A DNA stretch of 31,490 nt from a virus: the IMG/VR virus record IMGVR_UViG_3300029779_000023; one strand, written 5' to 3'. The position numbers were made by a program, and so were the translations under genes. Shown here one piece after another: positions 180 through 31,490 of the stretch; within the stretch, counting starts at the first letter, position 1; every line of letters begins with the position of its first letter. The notes beneath the pieces are model-generated. The model searched no databases, had not been told where the DNA came from, and saw nothing but the letters and a program-made list of their open reading frames with translations.

Positions 180-1214
180 TCAAGCGGCGGCAAGGTGGGC
201 GGCGAACAGGTCGTTTGAACTCGCGAAGCCTAAAATTTCGCGCGGATAGTTATTGATCCACGTTTCGACGCGAAGAATATATGCGGCGGTTACTTTCCGG
301 AAGTCTGTTCCTTTCGGCAAGAACCGCCGTATCATTCTGTTTATATTTTCATTCGTTCCCCGCTCGAATGCGCTATAAGGGTGGCAATAATAAACCTTCG
401 TCCGCTTCCGGTTCTTCCCGTAGATTGACTTTTCAATTCCGGCGCAATCCGCGAATTCTGAACCGTTGTCAAACGTAATGCTTTTGAATATCTTTGAAAA
501 GCGCTTTCCATATCGGCGTTCCAGCTTATTCAGCGCCGCCACGACGCTGGCGGCTGTCTGATCCGGTATCTTCATAATGATTTCTTGCCGCGTCAGACGT
601 TCCGAAAGAACGAACAAGGCTTCCTTCGTCTTTTTCTTTCCGCATACGCAATCGCCTTCCCAATGCCCGAAGGTTTTTCGTTCGTCAATCTCCGGATCGC
701 GTCTTTCTATGCTTTCGCCCTGCGGCGCGCGGGCGGATTTCTTGCGCTTTACTTTTTCATATTTCCGCTTCCGCTTTCCTTTCTCCGGTAAGCTCTCGCG
801 GCTGATCCCGAAAAATATTCCCTTGTCGATGTAGTTATAAATCGTCTTTTCGCTGATCTCCGTTTTGAAGGTCAGCCCCAGCCGTTTGATTTCCCCTACA
901 ACGGCGGCGGGGGAATATCCCTCTTCACCGATTTTCTTTTCGATGAAAGCGGCTAATTCGTGATCGCTCCCGATCTTTAATTCTCCGCCTTTCGCCGCAA
1001 GGTTTTCACGATAACGGGCTTCGGCAATTTCCGGCGAATAGCGTTCTTCCGTCGTCAAGTCGGAATTCAAATGCGTATATGTTCCACGTTTTAATTCCCT
1101 GTAAATCGTCGAATTATGTACGTGTAGCCTGTCGGCGATCTTGCAGGGCTTCAATCCCTCTTTCAACGCCTTTTCTATTTTAAGGCGATCCGTCCACGTC
1201 AAATGCTTGTGCAT
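180..1214 (-). CDS. IS30-family DDE transposase, apparently intact (344 aa)
   Basis: N-terminal HTH (LTWTDRLKIEKALKEG...STIYRELKRG). Catalytic landmarks HWEGD, ITFDNGSEF and HPYSAFERGTNENINRMIRRFLPKGTDF are present. RBS GGAAGGAGG lies before ATG 1214. Confidence 0.9.
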   Translation of the reverse strand: MHKHLTWTDRLKIEKALKEGLKPCKIADRLHVHNSTIYRELKRGTYTHLNSDLTTEERYSPEIAEARYRENLAAKGGELKIGSDHELAAFIEKKIGEEGYSPAAVVGEIKRLGLTFKTEISEKTIYNYIDKGIFFGISRESLPEKGKRKRKYEKVKRKKSARAPQGESIERRDPEIDERKTFGHWEGDCVCGKKKTKEALFVLSERLTRQEIIMKIPDQTAASVVAALNKLERRYGKRFSKIFKSITFDNGSEFADCAGIEKSIYGKNRKRTKVYYCHPYSAFERGTNENINRMIRRFLPKGTDFRKVTAAYILRVETWINNYPREILGFASSNDLFAAHLAAA

Positions 1215-4587: not shown

Positions 4588-4881
4588 TTACTTGCTGATT
4601 TGCTGTTCGATATGGTCAAGTCGTTTATGTGCCTGTTTTGCAGACGCTTCAACGGAAACAAGCCTTCCGACGAAATCGGTATTCGTCTTTCTCTGTTCCC
4701 GTTGTTCCGCCTTTACGTCGTCAATGCCGCCTTTTATGTATCCCAATTCGGTTAGAATTGTTGCGTCGCTCTTCGCTTCTTTGGTCTTGTCGCTGTCCCT
4801 ATTACGGACAAAAGCGATATACCCAAACACGATTGCGCAAACGGTACTGATAACAGATAAAACGGTCATTGCATTTTCCAT
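4588..4881 (-). CDS. Membrane-anchored coiled-coil lysis-associated protein (XhlA/BhlA-like topology), 97 aa
   Basis: N-terminal TM VLSVISTVCAIVFGYIAFV followed by a charged coiled-coil tail. RBS AGGAGG lies 7 nt before ATG 4881. It is the first gene of the lysis cassette. Confidence 0.45.
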   Translation of the reverse strand: MENAMTVLSVISTVCAIVFGYIAFVRNRDSDKTKEAKSDATILTELGYIKGGIDDVKAEQREQRKTNTDFVGRLVSVEASAKQAHKRLDHIEQQISK

Positions 4882-5948
4882 TCGTCGCCCTCCTTTCGTT
4901 CATTGGCGATTTGTGCCGCCGCGCTTGCGGCTTGCCGCTCTTCCCGCGCGCCCTCCAGCCGTCGAAGCATTCCTTCCCGAAGCAAGTACGCGTCCGCGTG
5001 TTGGATATGCCCCAGCCAGCTTTGAAGGGCTTTCGCGAAGCGCTCTTCGCTGATAATTCCCTTCCGGTATGCGCGGATCGTCCGCTTCATTCGGCGAATG
5101 CTTGTTTTGCGCACCTTCTTGTGGTCGGTGAAGTGTCTGTATCCGCAGAAATCAACGCCGTTCTTGCAATTAAGGATCGTTGTTTTCGGATTGAGAAGCA
5201 AGCCCAATTCCGAAGCAAGGAAGAATTCGATCTTCTGCAACAAATCCCGCAAATACGCCTTGTCGGGCGAAAGGATAACGAAGTCGTCCATATAGCGTAT
5301 ATAATGCCGAACGTGCAAGGTTTCTTTCAAATACTTGTCCATCCGATCAAGATATAAATTCGCGAATAACTGTGACGTAAGGTTTCCGACGGGAATTCCC
5401 TTGCCGTCCGTGCCGACGTTGTCGATGATTTTATCGAGAAGCGCAAGCGCTTCTTCGTCCTTGATGATCCGCCGGATCGTCGCTTTCAGCCTTTCGTGGT
5501 CGATTGATTGAAAGTAATGGTGAATGTCCGCTTTGATCGCGTACAGCGGTTTTCCGTCGAAGGTTTCATCGTAAAGCCATTTCGTCAGCACTTCGGAAGC
5601 CTTGTGCATTCCCTTTTCCTTGCGGCAAGCGTAGGAATGATAATAAAACCGCCGATCTATCAGCGGTTCTAAAATATTGTTGATCGCGTGTTGCGCGACG
5701 CGATCGGCGAACGGAAGGGCGGAGATTAACCGCTTCTTCGGTTCGTAAACGTAAAACGTGCGGTAAATCCCTTGTTCGTAAGAATGCCATATCAAGTGAT
5801 TTTGCAAATTGATAAGGTTTTCTTCAAGATTTCGCGAATACCGCAAAACTTCGTTACGATAACGCTTGCACCGCCGCGCTTTCTTGTATGCGCGTTCGAG
5901 ATTTGCGAAATCGTATATCTGTTCATAAATTCCGGTGTATCTTTTCAT
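4866..5948 (-). CDS. DGR-type reverse transcriptase (360 aa)
   Basis: ATG 5948 with RBS GGGAGG (5953-5958). Motifs IPVGNLTSQLFANLYL ([I/L]GxxxSQ, DGR signature) and RYMDDFVIL (YxDD). The 57-codon upstream extension in the track ORF merely reads through the TR and spacer. Confidence 0.9.
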   Translation of the reverse strand: MKRYTGIYEQIYDFANLERAYKKARRCKRYRNEVLRYSRNLEENLINLQNHLIWHSYEQGIYRTFYVYEPKKRLISALPFADRVAQHAINNILEPLIDRRFYYHSYACRKEKGMHKASEVLTKWLYDETFDGKPLYAIKADIHHYFQSIDHERLKATIRRIIKDEEALALLDKIIDNVGTDGKGIPVGNLTSQLFANLYLDRMDKYLKETLHVRHYIRYMDDFVILSPDKAYLRDLLQKIEFFLASELGLLLNPKTTILNCKNGVDFCGYRHFTDHKKVRKTSIRRMKRTIRAYRKGIISEERFAKALQSWLGHIQHADAYLLREGMLRRLEGAREERQAASAAAQIANERKEGDEWKMQ

Positions 5949-6114
5949 AGAACCTCCCGCGTCCGCCTTTCGCTTTCTGCTACTAACCAGCCGCGTCCCT
6001 TTTCGTATTTGCCCAGCGGTATTCCTCCGCCAAGACGGGCAAAGCGTTCTGACTAATGGTATTTGCATTAGTTGTGCCGTTGCTCCGTAAAGCAACACGC
6101 CTAAAAGTTTCCAA
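5949..6114 (-). ncRNA. TR-to-RT spacer of the DGR RNA (structured)
   Basis: Non-coding 166 nt with three hairpins: 6079-6096 (6 bp), 6052-6072 (7 bp) and 6009-6042 (6 bp outer plus 4 bp inner). Confidence 0.5.
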
Positions 6115-6232
6115 GTCACAGGCGCACCGCGCGCCGATGCTCGGGTTCACGTCCCACGGGTAGTTGTTCAAGCGGACGGCGCGCGCCCCGGCGTGAACGC
6201 CATTGTGCCAGTTGCCGCCGCCGAGAAGGGCG
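6115..6232 (-). repeat. DGR template repeat (TR), RT-proximal copy
   Basis: 118 nt with 104 identical to 6678-6795 at a fixed offset of 563. It is non-coding, between avd and the RT gene. Confidence 0.85.
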
Positions 6233-6259
6233 CAGAATTAACAACGCTTTGCCCAAATG

Positions 6260-6601
6260 TCAACGCCCGCTTTGCGCAAACTTTATCAGCCCGCCGAGAA
6301 GCGAACCGATTTCAGCGATCTTCCCGCATATCACGCCGTATTGCTTCGGATTGATATATCGGAGATCATGCGCAAGGCGGATCAACATTTTTAATTCCTC
6401 TATGAGAACGTCCGCTTCGTATAGGTTGGATTTCTTCGCCGTGCTTTTGTTTGCCTTGATAACGCACCGTTCCAAATCTATCACGCAATTTTTGATTTGC
6501 GTTTGAAGCGTGAATTTCTCATACTTCGGGAACTTTGCAATTATGGGATAGAGGTACAAGAGAAAATCGTATACCTTTTGATACAATACCAGCTTTTCCA
6601 T
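6260..6601 (-). CDS. avd: Accessory variability determinant (Avd-like four-helix-bundle protein), 113 aa
   Basis: Size, position between VR and TR, and sequence (YQKVYDFLLYLYPIIAKFPKYEKFTL...) typical of the Avd / 23S-rRNA-IVS protein family. Confidence 0.8.
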   Translation of the reverse strand: MEKLVLYQKVYDFLLYLYPIIAKFPKYEKFTLQTQIKNCVIDLERCVIKANKSTAKKSNLYEADVLIEELKMLIRLAHDLRYINPKQYGVICGKIAEIGSLLGGLIKFAQSGR

Positions 6602-6617
6602 GTGTCAAAGTCCCTTC

Positions 6618-6647
6618 AAAAATAGGGGACGGGCTTTCGCCCGCCCC
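6618..6647 (-). terminator. GC-rich hairpin with GAAA loop downstream of VR (terminator-like; candidate DGR target-recognition hairpin)
   Basis: Minus strand reads GGGGCGGGC-GAAA-GCCCGTCCCC (9 bp, one bulge, 6625-6647) followed by TATTTTTG. It lies 30 nt beyond the VR 3' end. Confidence 0.6.
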
Positions 6648-6668
6648 GTCAGATATTCAGATAACAGA

Positions 6669-7862
6669 TTACAGACTGTCACAGGCGCACCGCGCGCCGA
6701 GGTACGTGTACACGTTCCACGGGTAGAAGTACAAGTTGACGGCGCGCGCCCCGGCGTGAACGCCATCGGACCAGTTGCCGCCGCCGAGAAGGGCGACAAG
6801 CGAATAATCGTTGTACTGATAAATATTTCCGTATCCGTCGCCGAACGGGGAAGTTGTGTCCCAGCCCCATACACCGTCGTTCGTTGCGTGATAGTGTCCA
6901 TTCCCGTTTGTGTACTCTTTTCCTGCGCGCCCGCCGTCGTATGAAGGGAATGTTCCGCTTCCGTTCAGCTTTACGTGTTCCGCCCGCGTGATAAGCTCGT
7001 TCAGCCATTCCCATACATTTCCGACGCAATCGCGGCAACCGATCGAAGAAACGGCATTTGCGACGTATCCGGTTTTCTGCCTTCCGGTGTTTCCGGTCGC
7101 GCTCCATGCGTTCGTGTTGCTGTCCGCCATCCCCTGCGGGCTTCCGAAAGCCGCCATGCAAAACTCTTCGTATGTCAGAAGGCGCTTGCCGGATACAAGG
7201 GCGCGTTCAACGAACCCGTACCAATTCAAGCCTTCCGTTCCGGTCATCGGTGTGGCGTTATAGGCGGAAGCAAGCCCGCCCGCTCCGTCGTCGGAAGAAA
7301 GGTAAATATCAACCCATGTCCCGTTTGCGAGATAGACCATGCCTTCGGGATTGCACTTCGGACGATGTGCCAGCGTCCAAACGGAACGTGGAACGATACC
7401 GTCGAACACGGAACTTTCCCAGTTTGTGCCGCGTACCGCGCCGGAAGCGTTCACAGGCGCAAGCGCGGCGTTCACTTTGCGGCACTTACCGTAATGGAAG
7501 CCGCCGATCTTGCGGCTGTTTGCCGCTCCGTAGCCCGCCGGGTAGGTGGAATTCAGCGAAATTTTATAAACTTCGTCGTTACCTTCTCCCGCGTCGCACA
7601 GGAAAATATAATAATCCTTTCCGACGGTGAAAGCCGCCCCGCTGTCAAGATCAGCCGCCGAAAGTGCGGTGTTTTCGGTCTTGAACACGCCGCCGCCGAA
7701 AATGGAGAAGATACAACCTTCTTCGATCTGCAACGTGTCGCTTCCGATCACGGTGATATACTGCTTGATCGGAATTGCCGTTTCGGAAAGTGTGGCGATC
7801 TTGCCCGTGTTAAGCAGGGCGCGGGGATCGCGGTTTACGAAATCATTTGTCAGAAAGCGCAT
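6669..7862 (-). CDS. DGR target: tail-fibre / receptor-binding protein with an FGE-sulfatase / C-type-lectin-like C-terminal domain (397 aa)
   Basis: GCRDCVGNVWEWLNE and the C-terminal GGGNWSDGVHAGARAVNLYFYPWNVYTYLGARCACDSL are typical of DGR variable proteins. It is the last structural gene after the fibre genes. Confidence 0.85.
   Translation of the reverse strand: MRFLTNDFVNRDPRALLNTGKIATLSETAIPIKQYITVIGSDTLQIEEGCIFSIFGGGVFKTENTALSAADLDSGAAFTVGKDYYIFLCDAGEGNDEVYKISLNSTYPAGYGAANSRKIGGFHYGKCRKVNAALAPVNASGAVRGTNWESSVFDGIVPRSVWTLAHRPKCNPEGMVYLANGTWVDIYLSSDDGAGGLASAYNATPMTGTEGLNWYGFVERALVSGKRLLTYEEFCMAAFGSPQGMADSNTNAWSATGNTGRQKTGYVANAVSSIGCRDCVGNVWEWLNELITRAEHVKLNGSGTFPSYDGGRAGKEYTNGNGHYHATNDGVWGWDTTSPFGDGYGNIYQYNDYSLVALLGGGNWSDGVHAGARAVNLYFYPWNVYTYLGARCACDSL
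6678..6795 (-). repeat. DGR variable repeat (VR) at the 3' end of the target gene
   Basis: Matches the TR at 104/118 positions. The 14 mismatches sit in 10 codons. The 3' end carries a 15-nt GC-rich block GGCGCGCGGTGCGCC (plus 6684-6698). Confidence 0.85.
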
Positions 7863-8421
7863 AATTCTTCAAAACCCCCTTGATAGATTTTACTTCGTCC
7901 GCAGAAATGCCCAGCACTTCAAACGGGCTAACGTCGGAAAGAACCTTCAAAACCTTTTCGCCCTCTTCCATAGCGCGGGAAAGAGAAACGATCATCAGCT
8001 CTTCGGCCTTCTCTGCGCCTTCCTCCAGCTCTTCGGCGTTTCCTCCGCCGATGTCCGGAAGAAGCGAACCAAGATCAACGCCGATCTTGTCGAAAAGGTC
8101 GCCCAGCTTGTCGAACGCGCCTTCGGCAATCTGCTTGAAGGCGGAAAGCACGGCTTCGGCGTGTGCGCGCTGTGCCTCCTTGATCGTTGTGGTATAGTTG
8201 TTCTTCACCTTCACGCCCGCCGCAACCTCTGCGCAAGGATTGATTACCACCGTTTTTCTGTCCTCGCTGATCTCTACGATTGGAACGGCGATATACTGCC
8301 GCTCCTCCACCGCTTCGATCGCGGCGGAAAGCTCATTTGCGGGAAGCTCCCCCGCTTGCACAAGGGAAAGACAATTATACAAGTCGTTCCCCGTTGCAAT
8401 TTTCTTCGGAAATCCTTTCAT
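7843..8421 (-). CDS. Hypothetical tail/fibre-associated protein (192 aa)
   Basis: RBS AGGAGG before ATG 8421, between fibre genes. No recognisable motif. Confidence 0.6.
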   Translation of the reverse strand: MKGFPKKIATGNDLYNCLSLVQAGELPANELSAAIEAVEERQYIAVPIVEISEDRKTVVINPCAEVAAGVKVKNNYTTTIKEAQRAHAEAVLSAFKQIAEGAFDKLGDLFDKIGVDLGSLLPDIGGGNAEELEEGAEKAEELMIVSLSRAMEEGEKVLKVLSDVSPFEVLGISADEVKSIKGVLKNYALSDK

Positions 8422-31147: not shown

Positions 31148-31402
31148 TTATCTTTCAGCGGCGGCGCGTCTGTTGCCTCTGCGCCGTATGTTTTCCTGTG
31201 CGGTCGTCTGTGCAAGATCGGCGCTGTAAATCGGACGCTTGTTTTCGTCAAGCTCTCCCGTGTATCCGCGTTTAAGCTCTTCGTAAATAGCGGCAACGCT
31301 CCTTCCGATCTTTGCGGCAATATCCACCGCCCGCTCGCCGTCGCTGTAAAGTGCTTCGATTTCGCGGCGCTGATCGAACGTCAAATACGAATATCCGTCC
31401 AT
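31148..31402 (-). CDS. Stand-alone HTH protein homologous to the N-terminal DNA-binding region of IS30-family transposases (84 aa)
   Basis: ATG 31402 with RBS AAAGGAGG. YLTFDQRREIEALYSDG...IAAKIGRSVAAIYEELKRGYTGEL...YS...ENIRRRG aligns with HLTWTDRLKIEKALKEG...IADRLHVHNSTIYRELKRGTYTHL...YS...ENLAAKG of the 180-1214 transposase. Confidence 0.7.
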   Translation of the reverse strand: MDGYSYLTFDQRREIEALYSDGERAVDIAAKIGRSVAAIYEELKRGYTGELDENKRPIYSADLAQTTAQENIRRRGNRRAAAER

Positions 31403-31490
31403 TTCGCAAGCCTCCTTTCGCCGTCCGGATAAAAAAATAAAGCAGGAAAACCCGTTTCGGTTTTCTCTGCTTTTAATGTTACTCCGCACA
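31368..31490. repeat. Terminal direct repeat or assembly overlap, copy 2 (identical to 1-123)
   Basis: Exact 123-nt identity with the window start. Confidence 0.95.

Follow-up and report, generated by a model that had tools for sequence, protein, structure and literature searches.

When the two repeats of a diversity-generating retroelement (DGR) differ at positions other than template adenines, it must be asked whether the element is still a working DGR and, if so, how the discrepancy arose. This question is raised by a locus on the minus strand of a 31,490-nt viral DNA (IMG/VR record IMGVR_UViG_3300029779_000023), the whole of which is referred to here as the window. Read along that strand, the locus comprises a target gene of the Mtd type, a GC hairpin (GAAA loop), avd, the template repeat (TR; 118 nt), a spacer of 166 nt, and the gene for a reverse transcriptase (RT); all coordinates below refer to minus-strand features. 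A first-pass annotation had read this cassette as a complete DGR located between the tail genes and the lysis genes. That reading is supported, its placement of the cassette is correct, and the open reading frames (target 6669..7862, avd 6260..6601, and RT 4866..5948 from its ATG) as well as the motifs IPVGNLTSQ, YMDD, and GNVWEW were found as described. None of the outcomes it had named as incompatible with a DGR was encountered, namely an RT grouping with group II intron, retron, or Abi enzymes, a target C-terminus of another fold, and a variable repeat (VR) lacking variation. Taken as a whole, the locus is best explained, and we hold this with high confidence, as a complete and currently active BPP-1-type DGR in which the TR of one sub-lineage was altered and later reused. 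As a gut-phage DGR the element is unremarkable and of a known kind; the new aspect is an unusual natural case of template erosion.

The genome that carries the element is that of a ~31.4-kb temperate siphovirus-like phage from the human gut. Judging by its TerL, whose closest match is that of 'Phage nd12' (91% amino-acid identity) and whose relatives are Butyrivibrio phages, its host is a Gram-positive-type gut bacterium. A megablast search against 50,697 deposited phage genomes returned zero matches. The phage is very common in the collection searched, where its Avd protein is listed in 2135 blocks.

The RT (4866..5948; 360 aa) matches Pfam RVT_1 and has a GGGAGG Shine-Dalgarno sequence 5 nt upstream of its ATG. 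Both signatures of the DGR clade, [I/L]GxxxSQ and YxDD, are present, and its proposed placement among DGR RTs is borne out by solved structures. The top match is BPP-1 bRT (8ub7_A, E = 5e-57, residues 2-323), whereas group II intron and 'retron-type' RTs reach only ~1e-19. Moreover, an adenine-biased TR/VR pair was found at 110 of the 159 loci that encode homologues of this RT.

Directly adjacent to the TR is avd (6260..6601), encoding a 113-aa accessory variability determinant. Its product scores above both curated cut-offs, with 113.7 bits for the NCBIfam model DivGenRetAVD (NF033474; cut-off 80) and 104.5 bits for Pfam bAvd (cut-off 40), and it also matches the BPP-1 Avd structures 4dwl and 8ub7_B (PDB match E = 5.5e-4), so that what had been called Avd-like can be named Avd. 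On the other side of the TR lies the spacer (5949..6114), which had been described as structured. Its length of 166 nt is right, but its structure is borne out in part: the folding energy is no better than that of shuffled sequences (z = -0.28), while a full-length match to Rfam RT-14 (RF02921) was obtained below threshold (30.6 bits, where the gathering score is 48.1; E = 0.02 in a search of 401 nt), and the window's spacer is not filed as a member on that score. Spacers at the same position in relatives score 61.5 bits (L005, L008, and L083) or 44.4 bits (L002 and L003), and a conserved UUAGUAGC...GCGAA motif is found in the window's spacer. It is probably a diverged relative of RT-14 and probably forms a structured part of the DGR RNA.

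The target gene (6669..7862) encodes a 397-aa Mtd-like protein with an Mtd second domain (Pfam mtd_2nd, 121 bits) and a C-terminal FGE/C-type-lectin-like domain (Pfam FGE-sulfatase, 28 bits, above its cut-off). Mtd crystal structures are matched with E = 1e-18 from the single sequence and 4.7e-27 from a profile, in an alignment that reaches the C-terminus, and the target is thus a full-length Mtd homologue, including the C-terminal variable segment, and a predicted receptor-binding protein. A C-type-lectin or FGE fold had been claimed for this segment. Homology with Mtd and the FGE-sulfatase match argue for such a fold; the AlphaFold model has low confidence there (pLDDT < 50 in the variable C-terminal domain), and Foldseek searches with this poor model gave Mtd as the top matches at a TM-score of 0.30. 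The 90%-identity cluster of the target holds 687 distinct sequences.

A blastn search within the window recovered the repeat pair reported earlier, TR (6115..6232) and VR (6678..6795; target residues ~357-395), at 104/118 identical positions (E = 2e-31), and no third copy in the 31.5 kb. The 14 mismatches fall, as had been noted, in 10 codons of the C-terminal segment, all at codon position 1 or 2. Only eight of them (57%) lie at TR adenines, and at five of the other six the VR has A where the TR has C or G; in related DGRs the adenine share of mismatches is usually 92-100%. These six non-adenine mismatches are the unusual part of the locus and were overlooked in the first-pass annotation.

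The ends of the two repeats are perfectly identical over 26 nt and 23 nt. The 23-nt 3' end of the VR (6678..6700; TCGGCGCGCGGTGCGCCTGTGAC) is an invariant GC-rich block common to the TR, and VR and TR diverge right after it; the adenine at GAC within the block is constant in every VR. The GC hairpin of the first-pass annotation does exist at 6625..6647 as a hairpin or cruciform, GGGGCGGGC-GAAA-GCCCG(T)CCCC, followed by a T-run. Its 9-bp stem is all G/C with one bulged T, its loop is GAAA, and it stands 30 nt past the end of VR homology. Published phage-DGR hairpins have a 7-10 bp GC-rich stem and a 4-nt GRNA loop and lie 4-34 bp after the VR (PMC3240598), a description that this hairpin fits. 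Among relatives, a perfect hairpin of this type was seen downstream of 28 of 86 VRs, compared with 1 of 83 TRs. An IMH-like block and a hairpin are therefore both present as predicted target-recognition elements.

By homology with BPP-1, the avd-TR-spacer region would be transcribed and the TR portion of this RNA copied into cDNA by an RT-Avd complex, with misincorporation opposite template adenines. The GC-rich 3' segment that TR and VR have in common and the downstream GAAA hairpin would then direct the cDNA to the 3' end of the Mtd-like gene, where it would replace the VR. Up to 13 codons of the receptor-binding face could be rewritten in this way.

Activity in nature was judged from some two dozen assemblies of this phage, independent of one another and all from gut metagenomes. 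Their flanking DNA differs by 0-0.1%; all evidence on DGR activity and on the change in the TR comes from such consensus assemblies. These near-identical assemblies contain 22 distinct VRs. In 19 VRs that were tallied, 210 of 212 substitutions are at adenines of the canonical TR, the sequence found in most assemblies, and 22 of its 23 adenines were changed in at least one VR. Two assemblies (L162 and L163) show 0 differences over ~6.1 kb outside the VR and differ at 16 positions within it. At the protein level, 13 members of the target cluster differ at 0-1 residues over aa 1-356 (the cluster representative, P0001, has 13 differences there), compared with 5-11 residues in the last 41 aa, all at codons with a TR adenine. 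The hypervariability that had been anticipated for the VR is therefore abundant and confined to it, and with adenine-only variation among otherwise identical genomes the DGR is active in nature.

Comparison of the TRs themselves revealed where the six non-adenine mismatches come from. The canonical TR, with A at all six positions, was found in 24 of 28 TR sequences, and the window's TR is derived from it by A-to-C/G changes at 6207, 6174, 6173, 6153, 6144, and 6140. Against the canonical TR the window's TR has six changes and its VR nine, all at adenines, so the shortfall seen within the window (8/14) is due to the loss of six adenines from this genome's TR. The rest of the genome differs from L162 and L163 at 5 of ~6100 positions and matches L190, L196, L200, and L203 without a single difference over 4.4-5.9 kb. 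In L188/L197 a VR identical to that of the window accompanies a canonical TR. Conversely, L201 has an altered TR identical to the window's and a VR that bears all six altered bases together with 10 further changes at remaining adenines; the other 21 VRs match at most three of the six, and the empirical chance of a six-of-six match is ~5e-5. These three related assembly states (canonical TR with old VR, altered TR with old VR, and altered TR with new, marked VR) show that the six changes arose without change in the VR and essentially without other change between sister assemblies, and that a later VR was written from the altered TR. Because L188/L197 shares the VR and L201 shares the TR, the altered TR can be taken as real and still in use. 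The TR of L189 also departs from the canonical sequence, with GCC in place of AAC, and the same bases stand in the VR of L189. In the window, L201, and L189 the TR is thus not an invariant donor, which is a departure in state and no ground to exclude the element from the DGR family. As a consequence of the change, two variable codons lose all adenines (fixing Arg and Pro) and three more are narrowed, so that the theoretical repertoire falls from ~1e13 to ~3e9 proteins.

Integration of cDNA is the likeliest cause of the altered TR. We favour, with moderate confidence, a single event in which one adenine-mutagenised cDNA entered the TR instead of the VR (self-retrohoming) and left a heritable eroded template that was kept in use. 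The main competitor is homologous recombination (gene conversion) in which the TR was overwritten from a diversified VR in a related phage, either co-infecting or co-resident; this route we regard as possible but rather unlikely. The perfectly identical repeat ends would assist such an exchange, and co-infection is plausible for so common a phage. Furthermore, the allele at 6865 (G333D) and the TR allele occur in all four combinations among the sister assemblies, so that either recombination or a mixture of populations behind the consensus sequences must account for them. However, the resident VR has none of the six changes and cannot be the donor, so a second genome with exactly that VR would be needed, and conversion must strike the TR yet spare the recipient's VR. 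A cDNA copied from the resident TR would already be of the right sequence form, and documented cases of TR self-mutagenesis through DGR cDNA come from engineered systems (bioRxiv 10.64898/2026.07.21.739853). Among eight non-structural (early-region) proteins that were scanned together with two tail-region ORFs, none was recognised as a single-strand annealing protein or recombinase. For the TR event as such, integration of cDNA and conversion from the diversified VR of a co-infecting phage look alike.

Other explanations would remove the biological event altogether. Reads from a minor, diversified VR haplotype might have been threaded between the TR flanks during metagenome assembly, since the repeats are 88% identical, a newly written VR would look exactly like the altered TR, and multi-k assemblers can keep small-k chimeras in final contigs. 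Such a chimera is very unlikely: the altered TR occurs in at least three contigs, namely the window, an ENA scaffold with a different breakpoint (L167), and a JGI contig from another metagenome (L201), and the TR path is expected to out-cover any minor VR haplotype. Moreover, the L201 VR interleaves the six altered bases with 11 other changes that the TR lacks, which no k-mer chimera of canonical TR and that VR yields; a template with those six bases was therefore required. The low adenine share, which would fail the adenine-bias filters of many DGR finders, could also suggest a decaying, inactive relic whose non-adenine mismatches reflect ordinary drift of TR and VR. This we consider extremely unlikely, as the RT, Avd, hairpin, and repeat ends are all intact, VR turnover is ongoing in other carriers of the phage, and drift cannot place six changes in 118 nt, all at adenines, with flanks differing by 0-0.08%; the intact parts, the adenine-only changes, and the reuse of the altered TR in L201 already contradict it. 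Finally, the RT might belong to another class (group II intron, retron, or Abi/DRT defence) and the repeat be a chance duplication of the gene's 3' end. Homologues are indeed labelled 'retron-type' or 'group II intron' RT in public phage records, and the top NCBIfam RT models are group II intron maturase, Drt3a, and retron. Yet all of these score far below their cut-offs (137 bits against 300 for the group II model), in a library apparently without a DGR-RT model, and membership in those classes was rejected. With a bRT match better than any group II or retron structure by 37 orders of magnitude, with avd, adenine-specific VR variation, an Mtd target, and a GRNA hairpin all in place, and with no intron RNA or msr/msd matches in an Rfam search, the probability of this reading is close to nil; the bRT match and the VR variation at TR adenines already contradict it.

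Near-identical genomes from many people that differ only in the VR, and there only at template adenines, are a very clean natural demonstration of DGR activity. The invariance of the TR is central to the idea that DGRs can undergo unlimited rounds of diversification. If self-retrohoming is indeed what altered the TR, protection of the TR would be leaky in nature and DGR templates would evolve by their own mutagenesis, with favoured residues progressively fixed and the search space shrinking. At least part of the non-A-to-N mismatches present in about a quarter of catalogued DGRs would then have the same origin. The three captured states make template drift in a natural DGR directly testable. 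In practical terms, active elements such as this one will be missed or misjudged by DGR finders that insist on mismatches almost exclusively at adenines.

The element is most like the DGR of Bordetella phage BPP-1 (mtd-avd-TR-brt). Gene order and orientation are the same, and the RT, Avd, and target (an Mtd second domain with a C-terminal variable, lectin-like domain) are homologous. Both have a TR of ~118 nt rich in AAC codons, a GC-rich 3' end in TR and VR, a GC-stem/GAAA-loop hairpin downstream of the VR, and a TR-RT spacer of ~140-170 nt; the counterpart of the (G/C)14 part of the BPP-1 IMH is here the 23-nt GC-rich block. In BPP-1, IMH and IMH* are separated by 5 point differences, whereas here VR and TR diverge fully right past the GC-rich block and the hairpin lies 30 nt from the VR. 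Protein identity is also low, and Bordetella is replaced as host by a gut bacterium of the Gram-positive type.

Gut phage DGRs, such as those of the Bacteroides Hankyphage, Faecalibacterium prophages, and Bacteroides, diversify tail or adhesin proteins, and their VRs vary across metagenomes (PMC6199706, PMC11792537, bioRxiv 10.1101/2024.11.15.621889). The present element is likewise phage-borne, from the gut, and variable in its VR, but belongs to a different phage; no report of TR erosion was found in the parts of that literature consulted. The description of the TR as an 'invariant template region' (PMC6182149) does not apply to the window, where the TR itself is mutated. Mutation of the TR is known from the literature as a drawback of engineered systems, with which natural DGRs are explicitly contrasted. 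In BPP-1-derived DGRs in E. coli, the TR mutates, adenines are lost preferentially, and the encoded search space drifts (bioRxiv 10.64898/2026.07.21.739853); another report on engineered systems likewise mentions cDNA that reintegrates into the TR (bioRxiv 10.64898/2026.02.18.706561). The E. coli systems use a supplied recombineering function (RecT and a MutL variant) and plasmid-borne TRs, whereas the event described here took place in a natural phage with native target-recognition elements. In the survey of Wu et al. (2018), 23% of DGRs had at least one non-A-to-N mismatch and 24 of 372 had more than one, which was explained by atypical RT incorporation, integration errors, or independent mutation (PMC5758913). 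With six non-A-to-N mismatches the window would count among them; in this case, however, sister genomes trace the mismatches to the loss of adenines from the TR after the VR had been written.

The genes of the cassette region all lie on the minus strand. In order, these are a target ORF of 397 aa (6669-7862), a 67-nt gap containing a hairpin, an avd ORF of 113 aa (6260-6601), a 118-nt repeat copy that represents the template repeat (TR; 6115-6232), a non-coding TR-to-RT spacer of 166 nt, and a reverse transcriptase (RT) ORF of 360 aa with its ATG at 5948 and its end at 4866. The TR is identical to the variable repeat (VR; 6678-6795) at 104 of 118 positions, and the match stops nine nt short of the end of the target ORF. 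Within-window blastn recovered this pair at E = 2e-31 and found no separate "true" TR, second target or third repeat copy in the 31.5-kb window. The 14 mismatches are confined to 10 codons and fall, without exception, at codon position 1 or 2. In these respects (gene order, ORFs and repeat pair) the first-pass annotation was correct as written. Its placement of the cassette between tail and lysis genes was also confirmed by the annotated neighbours, which are TerL, portal, capsid, tape-measure, Dit and a Gp37-like tail protein upstream, and a 97-aa protein, an amidase-SPOR endolysin and a holin downstream.

The RT contains both the IPVGNLTSQ and YMDD motifs. Its best match among solved structures is the RT of the Bordetella phage BPP-1 diversity-generating retroelement (DGR) (8ub7_A, E = 5e-57, residues 2-323), followed by group II intron RTs at ~1e-19, which bears out the earlier identification as a DGR RT. 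At 110 of 159 RT homologue loci, the adenines of an RT-proximal repeat account for 80% or more of its mismatches. The 113-aa protein, previously described as Avd-like, scored above the curated cut-offs of both the NCBIfam model "diversity-generating retroelement protein Avd" (113.7 bits, cut-off 80) and Pfam bAvd (104.5 bits, cut-off 40), and also matched BPP-1 Avd structures. The target matched the Pfam "Mtd second domain" (121 bits), Pfam FGE-sulfatase, and six crystal structures of Mtd, the BPP-1 target protein (E = 1e-18 as a single sequence; with a 35-sequence profile, E = 4.7e-27). The last ~40 residues of the target align, in a second stretch, with the Mtd variable segment. An AlphaFold2 model built from the 35-sequence alignment had a mean pLDDT of 55, with values below 50 in residues 167-293 and 354-396, and Foldseek with this low-pLDDT model ranked Mtd first (E = 3e-9) at a TM of 0.30. 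Because of the poor model and low TM, the predicted lectin fold of the target C-terminal domain is assigned from sequence homology with Mtd rather than from a fold test.

To assess natural diversity, TRs and VRs were collected across roughly two dozen independent assemblies of the phage. These data came mostly from exact-protein look-ups; exact-pattern scans for the TR/spacer junction gave one locus each in IMG/VR and JGI metagenome contigs, and the Avd look-up gave six places, unchanged with other flank sizes. Outside the repeats, two sister assemblies (L162 and L163) are identical over ~6.1 kb, and the window has 5 differences from this pair. Among these assemblies 22 distinct VRs were found. 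Nineteen of them were tallied against the common TR: each has 5-15 substitutions, and 210 of the 212 in total are at TR adenines. Nearly every TR adenine (22/23) was substituted, and the only one spared belongs to the invariant 3' block. The target falls in a 90%-identity cluster of 687 distinct protein sequences. Across 13 of its members, the first 356 aa show 0-1 residue differences (13 in the cluster representative P0001) and the last 41 aa show 5-11, all in codons with an adenine in the TR. The VR-confined variation predicted by the first-pass annotation is therefore seen among assemblies, as 22 VRs in almost identical genomes. Judged from these natural populations, the DGR is active in nature, and sequence analysis could hardly make its assignment as an active BPP-1-type DGR more certain.

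One aspect of the repeat pair had been overlooked, namely the adenine bias of its mismatches. Only 8 of the 14 are at TR adenines. Of the other six, five pair an A in the VR with a C or G in the TR, and the sixth has A in neither. A canonical DGR cannot produce these six. The odd pattern is resolved by a near-identical IMG/VR contig (L001), in which each of the six TR positions is an A. Relative to the L001 TR, the window VR has 9 changes, the L001 VR 5 and the window TR 6, and each of these changes is at an adenine (9/9, 5/5 and 6/6, respectively). The altered TR positions are 6207, 6174, 6173, 6153, 6144 and 6140, and they convert codons AAC, AAC, AAC, ACG and AAC to CAC, CGC, GAC, CCG and AGC. 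Among 28 sequences, 24 carry the canonical TR, 2 the window allele, and 1 each the alleles of L164 and L189. The L164 TR differs by a synonymous C-to-T at a third codon position and not by an adenine change. L189, from a more divergent lineage, has a second independent allele (AAC to GCC, equivalent to window 6139-6140), and its VR has the same two bases as its own TR at the equivalent of window 6702-6703, as expected if this VR was rewritten from a TR with two adenines lost. In a screen of 124 related loci, 103 showed no mismatch with A in the VR but not in the TR; such mismatches occurred at least once in 21 and at least twice in 7.

The history of the window allele can be followed through sister assemblies. 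L188/L197, an ENA sister assembly from the same study as L167 (an ENA scaffold that carries the window sequence with another breakpoint) and from a different sample, has the exact VR of the window together with the canonical TR, and beyond the TR only two differences from the window were found in 5.9 kb. The window and L167 combine this same VR with the altered TR. L201, a separate 31,490-nt contig (JGI 3300029359) with one difference from the window in 5.9 kb beyond the repeats, has the identical altered TR and a different VR. The samples behind these assemblies are ENA ERZ28636052 / SAMN05971541, ENA ERZ28640686 / SAMN05971546, and JGI 3300029359 and 3300029341. The L201 VR contains all six altered bases plus 10 more substitutions at remaining TR adenines and one T-to-G; the other 21 VRs contain at most three of the six, and the empirical chance of finding all six is ~5e-5. 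Taken together, these comparisons show that the altered TR is real and has served as a template. In L188/L197, an A5-to-A6 homopolymer insertion at the equivalent of window ~6494 truncates Avd after residue 37. If real, it disables the DGR of this assembly, which would fit the unchanged VR; alternatively, it could be an assembly error. In the receptor-binding domain, a short way upstream of the VR, a further polymorphism affects codon 333 of the target (window 6865), which is GGC in the window and GAC in L197 and L201 (G333D). All four combinations of G333D and TR alleles occur among sister assemblies, through recombination, recurrent mutation or mixed-population consensus, so consensus sequences allow only a partial ordering of the events.

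Six adenine-only changes in the TR, with no change elsewhere in the genome, the VR included, are the footprint of a single mutagenised TR copy replacing the TR. By homology with BPP-1, the DGR would be transcribed, mutagenic cDNA would be made from TR RNA in an Avd- and RT-dependent step, and this cDNA would replace the VR under guidance of the hairpin and IMH, the BPP-1 target-recognition element. The most economical source of the altered TR, and probably the correct one, is such a cDNA integrated at the TR: the resident TR is its template, and six changes are within the 5-15 range of VRs relative to the canonical TR. TR self-mutagenesis with adenine loss has been documented in engineered DGR systems, contrasted with natural ones (bioRxiv 10.64898/2026.07.21.739853; see also 10.64898/2026.02.18.706561). 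The main alternative, gene conversion from the diversified VR of a co-infecting genome, appears unlikely; the resident VR cannot have been the donor. In the L201 VR the six bases are interleaved with changes absent from the TR (26C is common to both, 27C and 29G are not). For this reason a k-mer assembly chimera of the canonical TR and the L201 VR was excluded, and patchy VR-to-TR conversion is implausible.

Guo et al. (2011, PMC3240598) showed that phage DGRs depend on a hairpin 4-34 bp past the VR, in which a GC-rich stem of 7-10 bp carries a 4-nt GRNA loop. From the sequence and its DNA fold, the minus-strand hairpin GGGGCGGGC-GAAA-GCCCG(T)CCCC (6625-6647), which lies 30 nt past the end of VR homology and is followed by a T-run, fits this pattern. 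In relatives, a hairpin with a perfect GC-rich stem (7 bp or longer) and a loop of 4 nt was found in 28 of 86 distinct regions downstream of the VR (21 of these 28 with a GRNA loop) and in only 1 of 83 downstream of the TR.

The TR-to-RT spacer has ordinary folding stability of its own (z = -0.28), and matches the Rfam family RT-14 (RF02921) over its full length (5958-6115, minus strand) at 30.6 bits, under the 48.1 threshold. RT-14 scores 44.4 bits in the spacers of the closest relatives (L002 and L003) and 61.5 bits in those of three other related DGRs (L005:657-823, L008:3811-3977 and L083:3811-3977). In the window and these three DGRs its extent coincides exactly with the spacer, so RT-14 may represent the spacer RNA of DGRs with an RT of this clade. 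A MAFFT/RNAalifold consensus over relatives recovered a single covarying hairpin because the alignment was poor, and the RNA assignment was taken from the Rfam covariance model. The first RT-14 helix is an 8-bp hairpin with a 4-nt UACG loop at window ~6078-6097 (minus strand), 19 nt downstream of the TR. It is similar in distance and loop size to the hairpin downstream of the VR, and one speculative possibility is that it makes the TR a weak target. At another related DGR, a twister-P1 ribozyme-like match (45 bits, gathering score 67) was found ~3 kb downstream of the RT (L007:7925-7994).

Given its exact 123-nt terminal direct repeat (1-123 and 31368-31490), the window represents a complete phage genome of 31,367 nt that is circular or was assembled as a circle. 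The same element is present within contigs of up to 498 kb, and the phage is therefore a prophage in other samples. The sole integrase-like gene seen encodes an HTH_38 and rve (IS30-like DDE) protein (180-1214, minus strand), not a tyrosine or serine recombinase; either this DDE enzyme integrates the phage or it belongs to an insertion sequence carried by it. No phage single-strand annealing protein, which could help cDNA anneal to the TR, was recognised among the eight non-structural (early-region) proteins and two tail-region ORFs scanned. The Avd protein is listed in 2135 blocks of a public assembly collection, mostly from human gut. Megablast of the cassette gave no DNA-level match in 50,697 deposited phage genomes, and a single genome-collection scan found no close copy (best RT identity 58%). 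The closest TerL proteins are from "Phage nd12" (91%) and the Butyrivibrio phages Arawn and Idris (75%). Two small length differences were also found among assemblies. L164 has an in-frame 30-nt deletion (8008-8037), flanked by two 24-nt direct repeats (7996-8019 and 8026-8049), which shortens a 192-aa gene product (7843-8421) to 182 aa. Relative to L001, a 13-nt insertion or deletion (L001:5484-5496; window ~4466) lies between the 97-aa gene and the endolysin gene.

The loss of TR adenines reduces the theoretical protein repertoire from ~1e13 variants with the canonical TR to ~3e9 with that of the window. Arg376 and Pro386 are now fixed, and three further codons are down to four residues each. 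By all of the defining features tested, with the lectin fold of the target assigned from homology, the element belongs to the DGR family; TR invariance is the one exception. Though routine in kind, it preserves a clean record of natural activity and a case of template erosion that is both rare and testable. Wu et al. (2018, PMC5758913) surveyed DGRs and listed non-A-to-N mismatches in 23% of them, which they ascribed to errors of the RT or of integration, or to independent mutation. The window shows a further source of such mismatches, namely a TR that lost adenines once the VR had been written.
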